From the NCBI RefSeq assembly GCF_003334255.1, contig NZ_QOWU01000002.1: a DNA stretch of 64,000 bases; one strand, 5' to 3'. This DNA comes from Escherichia coli (GTDB lineage Bacteria > Pseudomonadota > Gammaproteobacteria > Enterobacterales > Enterobacteriaceae). The notes beneath the pieces are model-generated. The model saw only the letters and a program-made list of their open reading frames with translations. It did no database searches and was not told where the DNA came from. Each line of letters begins with the position of its first letter. The first letter of the stretch is position 1. Positions 11,698 to 31,246 of the stretch are shown piece after piece. The position numbers and the translations under genes are program-made.

Positions 11698-11888
11698 CTT
11701 TTGTTAACTCCTTTTTATAGATGCGGGAGGTAATTCCTCACCCCGGTGCCGATTTTCAGGCATCCTGATTTAACTTAGCACCCGCAACTTAACTACAGGA
11801 AAACAAAGAGATAAATGTCTAATCCTGATGCAAATCGAGCCGATTTTTTAATCTTTACGGACTTTTACCCGCCTGGTTTATTAATTTC

Positions 11889-11920
11889 TTGACCTTCCCC
11901 TTGCTGGAAGGTTTAACCTT
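11889..11920 (+). promoter_or_regulatory. copA promoter with CueR operator (inverted repeat ACCTTCC-N7-GGAAGGT between -35 TTGACC and -10)
   Basis: Sequence cttgACCTTCCccttgctGGAAGGTttaacc directly upstream of copA; MerR-type long-spacer promoter architecture. Confidence 0.8.
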
Positions 11921-11958
11921 TATCACAGCCAGTCAAAACTGTCTTAAAGGAGTGTTTT

Positions 11959-14463
11959 ATGTCACAAACTATCGACCTGACCCTGGACGGCCTGTCCTGC
12001 GGTCACTGCGTTAAACGCGTGAAAGAAAGTCTTGAACAGCGTCCGGATGTTGAGCAGGCGGATGTGTCTATCACTGAAGCGCACGTTACCGGGACTGCCA
12101 GTGCAGAACAGCTGATCGAAACCATCAAACAAGCGGGTTATGACGCATCTGTAAGCCACCCAAAGGCTAAACCGCTGGCGGAGTCATCAATCCCGTCGGA
12201 AGCACTGACAGCGGTTTCTGAGGCGCTTCCGGCAGCGACCGCCGATGACGATGACAGCCAGCAGTTGCTGCTGAGCGGCATGAGCTGCGCCAGCTGTGTC
12301 ACCCGCGTACAAAATGCGCTGCAAAGCGTACCGGGCGTCACTCAGGCACGGGTAAACCTGGCGGAGCGTACTGCGCTGGTGATGGGCAGTGCCTCCCCAC
12401 AAGATTTAGTGCAGGCGGTGGAAAAAGCGGGCTACGGCGCGGAAGCGATTGAAGATGACGCTAAACGCCGCGAGCGCCAGCAAGAAACCGCCGTCGCTAC
12501 GATGAAGCGCTTCCGCTGGCAGGCAATTGTCGCACTGGCGGTGGGTATCCCGGTGATGGTCTGGGGGATGATCGGCGATAACATGATGGTCACCGCTGAC
12601 AACCGCAGCCTGTGGTTGGTTATCGGCCTGATAACCCTGGCAGTGATGGTTTTCGCCGGCGGCCATTTTTACCGCAGTGCATGGAAAAGCCTGCTGAACG
12701 GTGCGGCGACGATGGATACGCTGGTGGCGCTGGGTACTGGCGTGGCGTGGCTCTATTCGATGAGCGTCAACCTGTGGCCGCAGTGGTTCCCGATGGAAGC
12801 GCGACATCTTTATTACGAAGCCAGCGCGATGATTATCGGTCTGATCAATCTCGGCCATATGCTGGAAGCGCGCGCACGCCAGCGTTCTTCTAAGGCGCTG
12901 GAAAAGTTACTCGATTTAACCCCGCCGACGGCACGCCTGGTTACTGACGAAGGTGAAAAAAGCGTGCCTCTGGCAGAAGTGCAGCCAGGTATGTTGCTGC
13001 GCCTGACGACCGGCGATCGCGTGCCGGTAGATGGCGAGATTACCCAGGGCGAAGCATGGCTGGATGAAGCGATGCTGACGGGCGAACCAATCCCGCAGCA
13101 AAAAGGCGAAGGCGATAGCGTCCATGCCGGGACAGTGGTACAGGACGGCAGTGTGCTGTTTCGTGCCAGTGCGGTTGGCAGCCATACTACGCTGTCACGA
13201 ATCATTCGCATGGTGCGCCAGGCCCAGAGCAGCAAGCCAGAAATCGGTCAGCTGGCGGATAAAATCTCAGCCGTATTTGTGCCGGTAGTGGTGGTTATTG
13301 CGCTTGTCAGTGCGGCAATCTGGTATTTCTTTGGTCCGGCACCGCAGATTGTCTATACCCTGGTGATTGCCACCACGGTACTGATTATTGCCTGTCCGTG
13401 TGCGCTGGGGCTGGCGACGCCGATGTCGATTATTTCCGGCGTCGGGCGGGCGGCTGAGTTTGGCGTGCTGGTGCGGGACGCTGACGCGCTGCAACGCGCC
13501 AGTACACTCGACACTGTAGTGTTCGATAAAACCGGGACGCTGACTGAAGGGAAGCCGCAGGTTGTCGCAGTGAAAACATTTGCTGATGTTGATGAAGCGC
13601 AGGCATTGCGTCTGGCGGCGGCACTGGAGCAAGGTTCCAGCCATCCGCTGGCACGAGCGATCCTCGATAAAGCAGGTGATATGCAGCTACCGCAGGTCAA
13701 CGGTTTCCGCACATTGCGCGGGCTGGGCGTGAGCGGTGAAGCTGAAGGTCATGCGTTATTGCTGGGCAATCAGGCGCTGTTAAATGAGCAACAGGTTGGT
13801 ACCAAAGCTATCGAAGCGGAGATTACTGCTCAGGCATCGCAAGGGGCAACGCCTGTGCTGCTGGCGGTTGACGGGAAAGCGGTAGCCCTGCTGGCAGTAC
13901 GCGATCCGTTGCGTAGTGATAGCGTGGCGGCGCTGCAACGCCTGCATAAAGCGGGATATCGTCTGGTGATGTTGACCGGGGATAACCCAACCACCGCCAA
14001 TGCGATCGCCAAAGAAGCAGGGATTGATGAGGTGATCGCCGGGGTGCTGCCGGACGGTAAAGCCGAAGCGATCAAACATCTGCAAAGTGAAGGACGTCAG
14101 GTGGCAATGGTGGGCGACGGCATTAACGACGCGCCAGCGCTGGCTCAGGCGGATGTCGGCATTGCGATGGGTGGCGGCAGTGATGTTGCCATTGAAACCG
14201 CGGCGATTACCCTGATGCGCCATAGCCTGATGGGCGTTGCGGATGCGCTCGCTATTTCCCGCGCAACGCTGCACAACATGAAGCAGAACCTGCTCGGTGC
14301 GTTTATCTACAACAGTATCGGTATTCCGGTCGCCGCCGGTATTTTGTGGCCGTTCACTGGAACACTGCTTAACCCGGTAGTTGCCGGAGCGGCAATGGCG
14401 CTCTCGTCGATTACCGTAGTGAGTAACGCCAACCGGTTGCTGCGGTTTAAACCGAAGGAATAA
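11959..14463 (+). CDS. copA: Cu(I)-exporting P1B-type ATPase
   Basis: 834-aa ORF with two N-terminal metal-binding motifs (GLSCGHC, GMSCASC), CPC, DKTGT. Confidence 0.96.
12159..12165 (+). other. copA: Programmed -1 ribosomal frameshift slippery heptamer C CCA AAG in copA (would yield ~70-aa CopA(Z) ending ...HPKG)
   Basis: CCCAAAG in frame X XXY YYZ at codons 68-69; -1 frame reads CCC AAA GGC TAA; known mechanism from literature. Confidence 0.7.
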
Positions 14464-14518
14464 GTACATCATTGCGGATGCGCTGCTTTAGGGTGGCGCA
14501 TTTGGCATCGACGCATGA

Positions 14519-14756
<238 letters not shown>

Positions 14757-14778
14757 GAGATGAAGCGATGTTTTGGCC

Positions 14779-15120
14779 TTACGCGACCTTTTTTGCACGC
14801 TCTTCACGGCGTGCCAAATATTCAGCCACTGTTTCAATCCGTCCCAATTCTTCCTGGGTGCGCATGTTGTTTTCAACTTCCCAAAGATCAACCGCCGCCT
14901 GGAGGTTTAGCCAAAAATCGACTGTGGTATCAAAAACTTTCGCCAGACGAAATGCCATCTCAGTAGTGAGTTTACGATTGTTATTGATCAGTGCACTGAC
15001 GCTATTACGATGAACATGCAGCAACTCTGCTAACTCATTGATTTTCAAATCGAGCGGTTCCAGATATTCATAGAGAAGAATATCTCCGGGTGTCGTCGGT
15101 TTTCTTGTTGCCTGTTTCAT
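14779..15120 (-). CDS. ybaQ: XRE-family HTH protein, HigA-antitoxin-like
   Basis: 113-aa frame from MKQATRK inside 131-aa track ORF; HTH region ELAELLHVHRNSVSALINN. Confidence 0.85.
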   Translation of the reverse strand: MKQATRKPTTPGDILLYEYLEPLDLKINELAELLHVHRNSVSALINNNRKLTTEMAFRLAKVFDTTVDFWLNLQAAVDLWEVENNMRTQEELGRIETVAEYLARREERAKKVA

Positions 15121-29314: not shown

Positions 29315-31246
29315 TCAAATGGGGCGGATACTTTCTTCATCCAGCTCCGCATCGAAGAACCGACGCAGGGTCTGAATATTATTATCCGCAATAATGGACT
29401 CGCGCGCCTGCGCAAGTTTTTCTTCGTATATCGCCTGACGCCACTCCAGCGGCGTACGCACCGCGGGATTATCATCTTCAACGATAGTCAGTTCAACCGT
29501 TGAACCTTTTAACATGCTCAACGCTTCAGCCAGTTTTTGCTGTGCACCGCGGTTGTTCAAATGCCGCTGAGAGGAGCGCAAATGCAGACATACTGCGTTG
29601 TCGCTCTCCTCTTTCCAGGCATTTAACGCCACCTGTTCGACCAGTTTTGGTAGCGAAAGTTGGCTCACCTGTGCCGCCCACGGGTCGCGCTCAATGGCTT
29701 CTGCCGCTAGCTTCGCCGCCAGTTCCGGCGTTTTTTCATGTTCCAGCGCTTTTTTCAGCGCCTTCGGCGTGGCGACCACTTCTTTTTGCTGCATCACCGG
29801 AGTGGTCGCCTTCCAGCGATACGCTTCTTTTTTGGCTGGCGCTTTTTCCAGCGCCGATGGCACCGGACGCGCCTGAACGCGATCGGTGACCGAAGCCAGT
29901 CTTTCCAGCGCAGCGTTATTCACCGGCCGCGCGCGGGTAGCGGCTGCCGGTTCACTCTTTTTTGCTTTGGTTGCTCCCTGCACGCGCTGCAACTGCTGGC
30001 GCGCCGCCAGCACCTGGCTGGTGGTTTCCGGGAGCGGTACAGTCGGTGCCTGCTGCGGCGCTGATTGCGGTTGCGGCGGCACCTGGGTTGGCGTCATTAC
30101 TGCCGTTGGCGCGACGGGTGCAAAGGACTGTCGTGGCACTTCTGGCTCAGGCAGCGGCATACGCGGATGGAATGCCAGCGCGCGCAGCAGCGTCATCTCA
30201 ACGCCCATGCGACGGTCCGGCGCATACGGTAATTCTTTGCGACCAATCAACAGCGTCTGATAGTAAAGCTGAATATCCGTCGGCGGTATGGTGCGCGCCA
30301 GTTCACGCATCCGCAGCTCGATGGCGGCCATGTCGTTGCCAAGTGCAGCAGGCGAAAGTTGTACCATCGCAATACGATGCAACAGGCCGAGCATTTCCAC
30401 CAGCAACGCTTCCCACTCGATACCACGGGCAGCGGCTTCATTAATCAGCGCCATTACGCGCTCGCCGTTGGCCTCGACCATCGCTTCAACCAGCGACAGC
30501 GCCTGATCGTCGTCAAGCGTACCCAGCATCGCACTGACCGCCTGGGTTGAAACCTGGCCGTCACCGCTGGCAATCGCCTGGTCGGTCAGACTTAAGGCAT
30601 CTCGCAGGCTGCCTTCAGCGGCGCGTGCCAGCAATTGCAGCGCCCGCGGCTCGTGAGCGATATGTTCTTCGTTGAGGATGTGCTCAAGCTGATGGCGAAT
30701 TTGCTCGACATCCAGCGCCTTGAGATGAAATTGCAGACAGCGTGACAAAATCGTCACCGGCAATTTCTGTGGATCGGTCGTCGCCAGCAGAAACTTAACG
30801 TGCTCCGGCGGCTCTTCAAGGGTTTTTAACAGTGCGTTAAAGCTGTGGCGCGACAGCATATGCACTTCGTCGATCAGATAAACTTTGAAACGACCACGCG
30901 CCGGAGCGTACTGGACGTTATCCAGCAGGTCGCGGGTATCTTCAACTTTGGTGCGCGAGGCGGCGTCGATTTCAATCAGATCGACAAAGCGCCCCTGCTC
31001 GATTTCACGACAGTTATCGCACACGCCGCACGGCGTCGCGGTAATGCCGGTTTCGCAGTTTAGCCCCTTCGCCAGCAGTCGGGCGATAGAGGTTTTTCCG
31101 ACGCCACGGGTGCCGGAAAAAAGATAAGCATGATGAATACGCCCTAACGACAAGCCGTTCGCCAGTGCGGTCAGCACATGTTCCTGGCCGACGACGTCAG
31201 CAAAGGTTTGTGGGCGCCATTTTCGGGCTAAGACCTGATAACTCAT
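29315..31246 (-). CDS. dnaX: DNA polymerase III tau subunit (gamma produced by frameshift)
   Basis: 643-aa ORF with Walker A GTRGVGKTS. Confidence 0.96.
   Translation of the reverse strand: MSYQVLARKWRPQTFADVVGQEHVLTALANGLSLGRIHHAYLFSGTRGVGKTSIARLLAKGLNCETGITATPCGVCDNCREIEQGRFVDLIEIDAASRTKVEDTRDLLDNVQYAPARGRFKVYLIDEVHMLSRHSFNALLKTLEEPPEHVKFLLATTDPQKLPVTILSRCLQFHLKALDVEQIRHQLEHILNEEHIAHEPRALQLLARAAEGSLRDALSLTDQAIASGDGQVSTQAVSAMLGTLDDDQALSLVEAMVEANGERVMALINEAAARGIEWEALLVEMLGLLHRIAMVQLSPAALGNDMAAIELRMRELARTIPPTDIQLYYQTLLIGRKELPYAPDRRMGVEMTLLRALAFHPRMPLPEPEVPRQSFAPVAPTAVMTPTQVPPQPQSAPQQAPTVPLPETTSQVLAARQQLQRVQGATKAKKSEPAAATRARPVNNAALERLASVTDRVQARPVPSALEKAPAKKEAYRWKATTPVMQQKEVVATPKALKKALEHEKTPELAAKLAAEAIERDPWAAQVSQLSLPKLVEQVALNAWKEESDNAVCLHLRSSQRHLNNRGAQQKLAEALSMLKGSTVELTIVEDDNPAVRTPLEWRQAIYEEKLAQARESIIADNNIQTLRRFFDAELDEESIRPI
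29957..29963 (-). other. dnaX: dnaX programmed -1 frameshift slippery site A AAA AAG
   Basis: Minus strand reads GCAAAAAAGAGTGAACCGGCAGCCG at the expected position (around codon 430). Confidence 0.8.

Follow-up and report, generated by a model that had tools for sequence, protein, structure and literature searches.

The copA gene, specifying a Cu(I)-exporting P1B-type ATPase of 834 residues, lies on the plus strand of the window, by which is meant the entire 64,000-nucleotide stretch of Escherichia coli DNA that was analyzed. The protein scores 1745.7 bits against the NCBIfam equivalog NF007952 (cut-off 1316), and the gene is flanked on one side by glsA, ybaT and cueR, on the other by ybaQ, ybaP and ybaK. 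The coding sequence shows 0 differences from that of E. coli K-12 MG1655 over 2505 nt (100% identity), and the 130 nt located 5′ of the gene, with the promoter region included, also are identical to MG1655. The copA region matches E. coli B-lineage chromosomes at 100% and was found in all 5426 of 5426 complete E. coli genomes. The 91-nt frameshift cassette described below is present in 5423 of these 5426 genomes and is at least 99% identical in 5342 of them. The gene and its promoter are positioned as follows:

11889..11919, + strand: promoter region of copA, reading TTGACC-N19-TAACCT and holding a 7-bp inverted repeat (ACCTTCC/GGAAGGT); operator of the MerR/CueR type by sequence
11959..14463, + strand: zero-frame coding sequence of copA for the Cu(I)-exporting P1B-type ATPase of 834 aa (open reading frame listing; RefSeq copA)

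The arms of the inverted repeat occupy 11892-11898 and 11906-11912. By established knowledge (Outten et al. 2000, cited in PMC6747150) we take this operator-like repeat to be the putative CueR site of the gene.

A first-pass annotation of this DNA had noted, within 12150-12175, that C CCA AAG sits in the X XXY YYZ frame at codons 68-69 of copA, that a -1 shift would read CCC AAA GGC TAA, and that the ensuing product of ~70 residues would comprise the first metal-binding domain with its GLSCGHC motif. These readings were borne out. Codon 67 (CAC) corresponds to 12157-12159, codon 68 (CCA) to 12160-12162 and codon 69 (AAG) to 12163-12165, and the -1 frame entered at 12159 proceeds through CCC AAA GGC to TAA. 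The elements of the recoding site are:

12159..12165, + strand: slippery heptamer C_CCA_AAG, consisting of the last base of the H67 codon and the P68 and K69 codons (X_XXY_YYZ register)
12168..12170, + strand: -1 frame stop TAA, one codon past the slip (frame arithmetic)
11959..12170, + strand: recoded coding sequence of CopA(Z), 11959..12165 joined to 12165..12170 by the -1 slip, 70 aa (frame arithmetic)
12166..12171, + strand: spacer GCUAAA of 6 nt between the heptamer and stem 1, containing the -1 stop (coordinates)

The spacer length falls within the ~5-9 nt of programmed -1 ribosomal frameshift (-1 PRF) cassettes. The CopA(Z) product consists of M1 to K69 followed by G70, with the C-terminal end ..SHPKG, and retains GLSCGHC in which the cysteines form C14-G-H-C17. 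Residues 8-62 match the Pfam HMA family (PF00403) with an E value of 1.4e-13 across model positions 3-62 of 62, and the sequence relatives of CopA(Z) in the PDB include metal-binding domains of copper ATPases and stand-alone CopZ (6ff2, 1cpz). By these matches, CopA(Z) is one complete HMA metal-binding domain with CopZ-like relatives.

The copA frameshift site is not new, and even the reference annotation lists it. The MG1655 record (NC_000913.3) includes a second copA coding sequence of 212 nt in two joined pieces (YP_009518752.1, ‘soluble Cu(+) chaperone’) which is exactly window positions 11959..12170. This recoded entry, the identity of the copA coding sequence to that of MG1655, and published accounts of the frameshift (PMC5009743; PMC9548414) uphold the match with a frameshift-derived copper chaperone of the literature that the first-pass annotation had drawn. 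The PGAP annotation of B strains contains the 834-aa product only and the CopA(Z) coding sequence is absent, leaving an annotation gap in which a product listed in the K-12 reference is left out of B-lineage genomes.

The 41 long open reading frames of the window (16,595 codons) contain 21 in-frame X_XXY_YYZ heptamers, or ~1 per 790 codons. As approximately one such heptamer is expected in a gene of the size of copA, the bare heptamer in copA is not beyond chance. Heptamers of the X_XXA_AAG type number only two in these reading frames, that of copA and the classical A_AAA_AAG site of dnaX.

The conservation of the site was assessed in 81 copA sequences, namely that of E. coli and the best 80 of 401 relatives with one genome per species, whose protein identities range from 97% (Escherichia albertii) down to 71% (Erwinia, Pantoea). 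The heptamer is located at the homologous codon and in register in 81/81 sequences of this set, as CCCAAAG in 78 and as CCCAAAA in three. A -1 stop, either TAA or TGA, is placed exactly one codon past the slip in 81/81. Residue 70 of the pump varies among A, S, T and P in E. coli and the best 80 of 401 relatives, yet always is encoded by NCT, and residue 71 varies among K, D, E and N, yet always is encoded by RAN. The predicted -1 products across the same 81 sequences are 70, 71 or 74 aa in length.

Codon choice around the slip is similarly restricted in E. coli and the best 80 of 401 relatives. Pro68 is CCA in 81/81, a codon that accounts for 9% of proline codons elsewhere in copA, and Lys69 is AAG in 78/81 compared to a background of 21%. 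The AGC codon for S66, 5′ of the heptamer, also is fixed, as are the rare codons GCT (9% background) and TCG (11%). In the segment designated below as the stem 1 3′ arm, the rare threonine codon ACA (6% background) is fixed in 68/68 and GCG in 81/81, and in the stem 2 3′ arm the rare leucine codon CTT (8% background) is fixed in 81/81. Synonymous diversity was calculated from a codon-aware alignment of ~820 codons of these 81 sequences (E. coli and the best 80 of 401 relatives), which delimited one further feature:

12154..12234, + strand: synonymous-site constraint footprint, codons 66-92, with mean synonymous diversity of 0.06 versus 0.444 gene-wide

Zero synonymous diversity was observed in 17 of the 23 usable columns of this footprint compared to 3.1% of columns gene-wide, and codons 66-92 have the lowest value of 679 contiguous blocks, the best non-overlapping block standing at 0.367 (E. 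coli and the best 80 of 401 relatives). The frameshift signals are under purifying selection in excess of what the zero-frame protein requires. Conservation of the heptamer and of the -1 stop together with the synonymous constraint form a context far beyond chance, and this context is what lends the copA heptamer its significance.

Immediately 3′ of the spacer, a predicted H-type pseudoknot spans 12172-12233, its two stems, one of 8 bp and one of 9 bp, being interleaved:

12172..12180, + strand: stem 1 5′ arm, CCGCUG, a 1x1 mismatch and CG; pairs with 12206-12214
12181-12194: loop 1, GAGUCAUCAAUCCC, 14 nt
12195..12203, + strand: stem 2 5′ arm, GUCGGAAGC, within the loop of stem 1; pairs with 12225-12233
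12204-12205: loop 2, 2 nt
12206..12214, + strand: stem 1 3′ arm, UG, the mismatch and CAGCGG, within the loop of stem 2 (predicted pairing)
12215-12224: loop 3, 10 nt
12225..12233, + strand: stem 2 3′ arm, GCUUCCGGC; pairs with 12195-12203

Within stem 1, the core is formed by 12172-12177 with 12209-12214 and, beyond the 1x1 mismatch, 12179-12180 pair with 12206-12207. The two-stem arrangement was recognized because the main helices of two alternative nested minimum free energy folds, of 60 and 95 nt, interleave. These nested folds of the E. coli sequence were not significant in comparison to shuffled sequences (z = -1.0 and -1.55).

Pairing was examined in the 73 distinct sequences among E. 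coli and the best 80 of 401 relatives. In this sample 99.8% of the cells of the pseudoknot are paired, which compares with 18-49% in a control in which the partners were slid by 1-3 columns. The stem 1 helix is 100% paired and its six core pairs are invariant in 81/81. Pairing in the stem 2 helix reaches 99.5%, with six pairs that are without variation and two that differ on one side only and stay paired (G-C to G-U, and U-G to C-G or U-A); its innermost pair is unpaired in 3/73 and invariant where paired. Overall, four pairs of the pseudoknot differ between species in this set of the best 80 of 401 relatives, of which three keep pairing, including an A-U to G-U change. Four blocks that are invariant in 81/81 of the same sequences (CCGCTG, CGGAAGC, CAGCGG and CTTCCG) coincide exactly with the arms of the two stems. 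A potential extension of stem 1, in which AAA at 12169-12171 would pair with UUU at 12215-12217, is possible in E. coli but is unpaired in most species of the set (best 80 of 401 relatives) and was dropped.

The observed covariation score was reached in 117 of 500 shuffles. As nearly all stem pairs are invariant, covariation statistics say nothing either way about the structure. An equally good interleaved two-stem structure arose in 68 of 2000 synonymous recodings of the single E. coli sequence. The case for the predicted pseudoknot therefore is carried by the synonymous-site footprint and not by folding energy or covariation. An Rfam search of 11700-14800 (E ≤ 1) returned no family over the frameshift element. 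The only Rfam matches in that interval were REP/naRNA4 copies located 3′ of copA.

The first-pass annotation was silent on both the downstream pseudoknot and the conserved -1 stop. These are features that set the copA heptamer apart from a chance one. Viewed against the ~20 chance heptamers in the window, a true site is distinguished by its conserved -1 stop, its synonymous-constraint footprint and its invariant interleaved stems, and copA serves as a positive control in which a true recoding site was recognized from raw sequence.

Loop 1 is almost invariant, with S76 and S77 fixed as the rare codons TCA TCA in E. coli and the best 80 of 401 relatives, a fixation for which the two stems do not account. 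GUCAUC finds a pairing partner of 6 bp or more in 60/81 of these sequences (best 80 of 401 relatives) versus 31% of shuffles, but its position varies and aspartate codons supply the motif free. It is conceivable, though doubtful, that a two-stem H-type pseudoknot is not the whole of the stimulator, with loop 1 forming a third helix with GAUGAC (12244-12249, in the acidic linker) or making tertiary contacts. If so, the stability of this three-element fold, and hence the ratio of pump to chaperone, could be tunable.

Frameshifting in E. coli copA is described in the literature. Efficient -1 frameshifting that produces a 70-aa putative chaperone was found via ribosome profiling (PMC5009743), and the event is well supported by a drop in ribosome density past the -1 stop (PMC9548414). 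The account of the work of Drees et al. 2017 given in PMC9548414 presents it as independent confirmation. The slippery sequence, a pseudoknot in the mRNA and the nascent chain act as stimulators (PMC7558416), and the pseudoknot along with stem-1 and stem-2 variants has been used in single-molecule assays (PMC6182138). CopA(Z) gives the cell protection when copper is in excess (PMC6771820), and a chaperone function has been stated for it (PMC6771820; PMC6747150). Among non-mobile E. coli genes only three, copA, dnaX and prfB, possess well-characterized programmed frameshifts (PMC10861913). For the present site the occurrence and efficiency of the slip, its stimulation by the pseudoknot and nascent chain, and the protection against copper are taken from this literature. 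The predicted structure is the same in kind as the published stimulator, and we infer that stems 1 and 2 are the published copA pseudoknot.

The copA -1 frameshift reportedly was described by Meydan et al. in 2017 (Mol Cell 65:207) and by Drees et al. in 2017 (Mol Microbiol 106:635), and was reaffirmed by Loughran in 2022. According to reviews, the Meydan 2017 study reported that loss of CopA(Z) by silent changes in the heptamer leads to copper sensitivity that is rescued by the 70-aa protein in trans.

The principal rival account is that the short protein comprising metal-binding domain 1 (MBD1) has as its main source a shortened copA transcript, or else proteolysis of full-length CopA, with frameshifting as a minor contributor and the RNA structure marking the place where a transcript ends or is processed. 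In its title, as cited in PMC9548414, the Drees et al. 2017 paper pairs ‘differential transcript formation’ with translational frameshifting, and this wording implies that a short transcript was reported there as a second, cooperating route. As far as that title indicates, such a transcript may be an additional route to the MBD1 protein. As the main source it is improbable: the terminator search of the copA 5′ region revealed no terminator-like hairpin with a U-tract within or near 12150-12300, a transcript end needs neither an in-frame heptamer nor a -1 stop that is kept in 81/81 sequences (E. coli and the best 80 of 401 relatives) through amino acid changes, and ribosome profiling locates the density drop at the -1 stop of a frameshift that has been confirmed independently (PMC9548414).

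The synonymous constraint denotes a function at the RNA level but leaves the kind of function unspecified, and the structure is situated in an inter-domain linker and includes the unexplained fixed codons of loop 1. The structure in codons 70-92 might serve mainly another purpose to which the slip is incidental, such as controlling mRNA stability or halting translation between MBD1 and MBD2 so that the protein can fold co-translationally or be targeted to the membrane. This proposal merits very little credence as a pause element needs neither heptamer nor -1 stop, both of which are maintained across virtually the entire set of species (best 80 of 401 relatives) with the non-preferred codons CCA (9%), AAG (21%) and GCT (9%). 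The 6-nt spacer provides the geometry expected of -1 PRF, and a protective function is documented for the product (PMC6771820). Least probable, with next to no likelihood, is that the heptamer is fortuitous and its conservation follows from an overlapping reading frame or from protein-level constraint. In-frame heptamers are expected at the frequency given above and the antisense frame is open over the region in E. coli, but that frame is interrupted by stops in 15/81 species (E. coli and the best 80 of 401 relatives) with no change in the nucleotide blocks, and neither of the two remaining sense frames is open in any of the 81. Moreover, the constraint acts on synonymous sites and fixes rare codons, and residues 70 and 71 change while the -1 stop does not. 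Frame closure, synonymous constraint and conservation of the -1 stop together refute an overlapping reading frame or chance as the cause of the constraint.

The site is almost certainly the E. coli copA cassette for programmed -1 ribosomal frameshifting, operating by the published mechanism. Its anatomy, its identity to the experimentally tested K-12 gene, and the conservation at synonymous sites of the heptamer, -1 stop and stems were observed directly in the sequences compared. In the programmed frameshift, ribosomes translating copA would meet C_CCA_AAG with tRNA-Pro at CCA and tRNA-Lys at AAG, and the pseudoknot positioned 6 nt past the heptamer would resist unwinding at the mRNA entrance. 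In some ribosomes both tRNAs would shift back by one base and pair anew with CCC and AAA; these ribosomes would then read GGC followed by TAA, thereby releasing the 70-aa CopA(Z). This protein would be a free copy of metal-binding domain 1 and serve as a cytosolic Cu(I) chaperone of the CopZ kind, a function assigned from the literature. The remaining ribosomes would stay in the zero frame and produce the 834-aa pump. As both products would derive from one CueR-controlled mRNA, their ratio would be set by the efficiency of frameshifting.

The system is that of K-12 copA/CopA(Z) with the same locus, heptamer, -1 stop, 70-aa product and 212-nt recoded coding sequence, and with no sequence difference. 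CopA(Z) resembles the copZ products of copZA operons in Enterococcus hirae, Bacillus subtilis and Haemophilus influenzae, which also are ~70-aa Cu(I) chaperones with an HMA fold and a CxxC motif that are co-expressed with CopA (PMC7558416; PMC10187127). However, copZ is a separate gene, whereas CopA(Z) is the MBD1 portion of the pump, set free through recoding. E. coli is without a copZ gene, and frameshifting explains how a cytosolic copper chaperone is provided at a ratio coupled to that of the pump.

The tau/gamma -1 frameshift of E. coli dnaX also is located in the window, at 29957-29963 on the minus strand. Like copA, dnaX is a chromosomal, non-mobile gene with a downstream RNA structure and with a heptamer that ends in A_AAG, is decoded by tRNA-Lys and is followed almost at once by a -1 stop, so that the shifted product is a truncated functional protein. 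The cassettes differ in that dnaX employs A_AAA_AAG, a Shine-Dalgarno-like AGGGAG at 29979-29974 and a simple stem-loop, whereas copA employs C_CCA_AAG and a pseudoknot. Inspection of the sequence 5′ of the copA heptamer revealed no Shine-Dalgarno-like element. Unlike dnaX, copA also uses the nascent peptide (PMC7558416). The -1 PRF cassettes of viruses and IS elements share with copA the X_XXY_YYZ heptamer, a spacer of 5-9 nt (6 nt in copA) and an H-type pseudoknot, but usually extend into a long -1 reading frame (Gag-Pol, transposase), whereas the copA shift terminates after one codon. The orthologous human copper ATPase, ATP7B, was claimed to undergo -1 PRF in the same 2017 paper as the E. 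coli finding. That claim is a reporter artefact that is without ribosome-profiling or conservation support, whereas the bacterial site has both (PMC9548414).

Rare codons in copA are fixed also outside the stems of the pseudoknot predicted downstream of the C_CCA_AAG heptamer, both in loop 1 (12181-12194) and 5' of the heptamer (12154-12156). In loop 1, residues S76 and S77 are encoded by TCA TCA in 75/78 and 63/65 sequences, respectively, against a background of 6% for TCA, and the S66 codon at 12154-12156 is AGC in 75/75 sequences. It is possible that loop 1 forms a third helix with GAUGAC at 12244-12249. A second copy of CTTCCG is located within loop 3 (GGTCCCTTCCGAGCTTCCGGC) in several Citrobacter species (rows L004, L005, L007-L009 and L013-L015 of alignment A1, which compares copA of relatives with that of the window; columns 69-85), and with this copy stem 2 would have a second, shorter option for pairing on its 3' side.

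Annotation of CopA(Z), the 70-residue frameshift product, is inconsistent between records. The recoded CDS ('soluble Cu(+) chaperone') is annotated in K-12 MG1655 (NC_000913.3), whereas PGAP-annotated B-lineage genomes of identical sequence (e.g., NZ_CP020368.1, L001) list the 834-aa CopA alone. The B-strain record also carries a 98-nt pseudogene fragment between cueR and ybaT (L001 143-240), labeled by RefSeq as a 'frameshifted; incomplete' hypothetical protein.

The window also holds the classical -1 frameshift site of dnaX (tau/gamma) at 29952-29979 on the minus strand, and A_AAA_AAG in dnaX is the only in-frame X_XXA_AAG heptamer in the window besides that of copA. The -1 frame reads AAA AAA GAG TGA, and a GC-rich hairpin lies 3' of the heptamer.

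29315..31246, minus strand, dnaX ORF, 643 aa
29979-29974, minus strand, SD-like AGGGAG upstream of the heptamer
29963-29957, minus strand, heptamer A_AAA_AAG, about codons 429-430

The regions flanking copA contain the following elements.

11889-11919, copA promoter, TTGACC-N19-TAACCT, with a long spacer of 19 bp
11892-11898 and 11906-11912, perfect 7-bp inverted repeat ACCTTCC/GGAAGGT in the promoter
14473-14753, three tandem REP/BIME-type copies 3' of copA, matching Rfam naRNA4 (RF02564) on both strands

The long spacer and the inverted repeat make up a promoter architecture of the MerR/CueR type; a sigma-70 scan that admitted spacers of 16-18 nt did not pick up this promoter. Two full REP/BIME-type copies scored 80-89 bits with naRNA4, and the copies account for spurious repeated ORFs in the ORF listing of the window.
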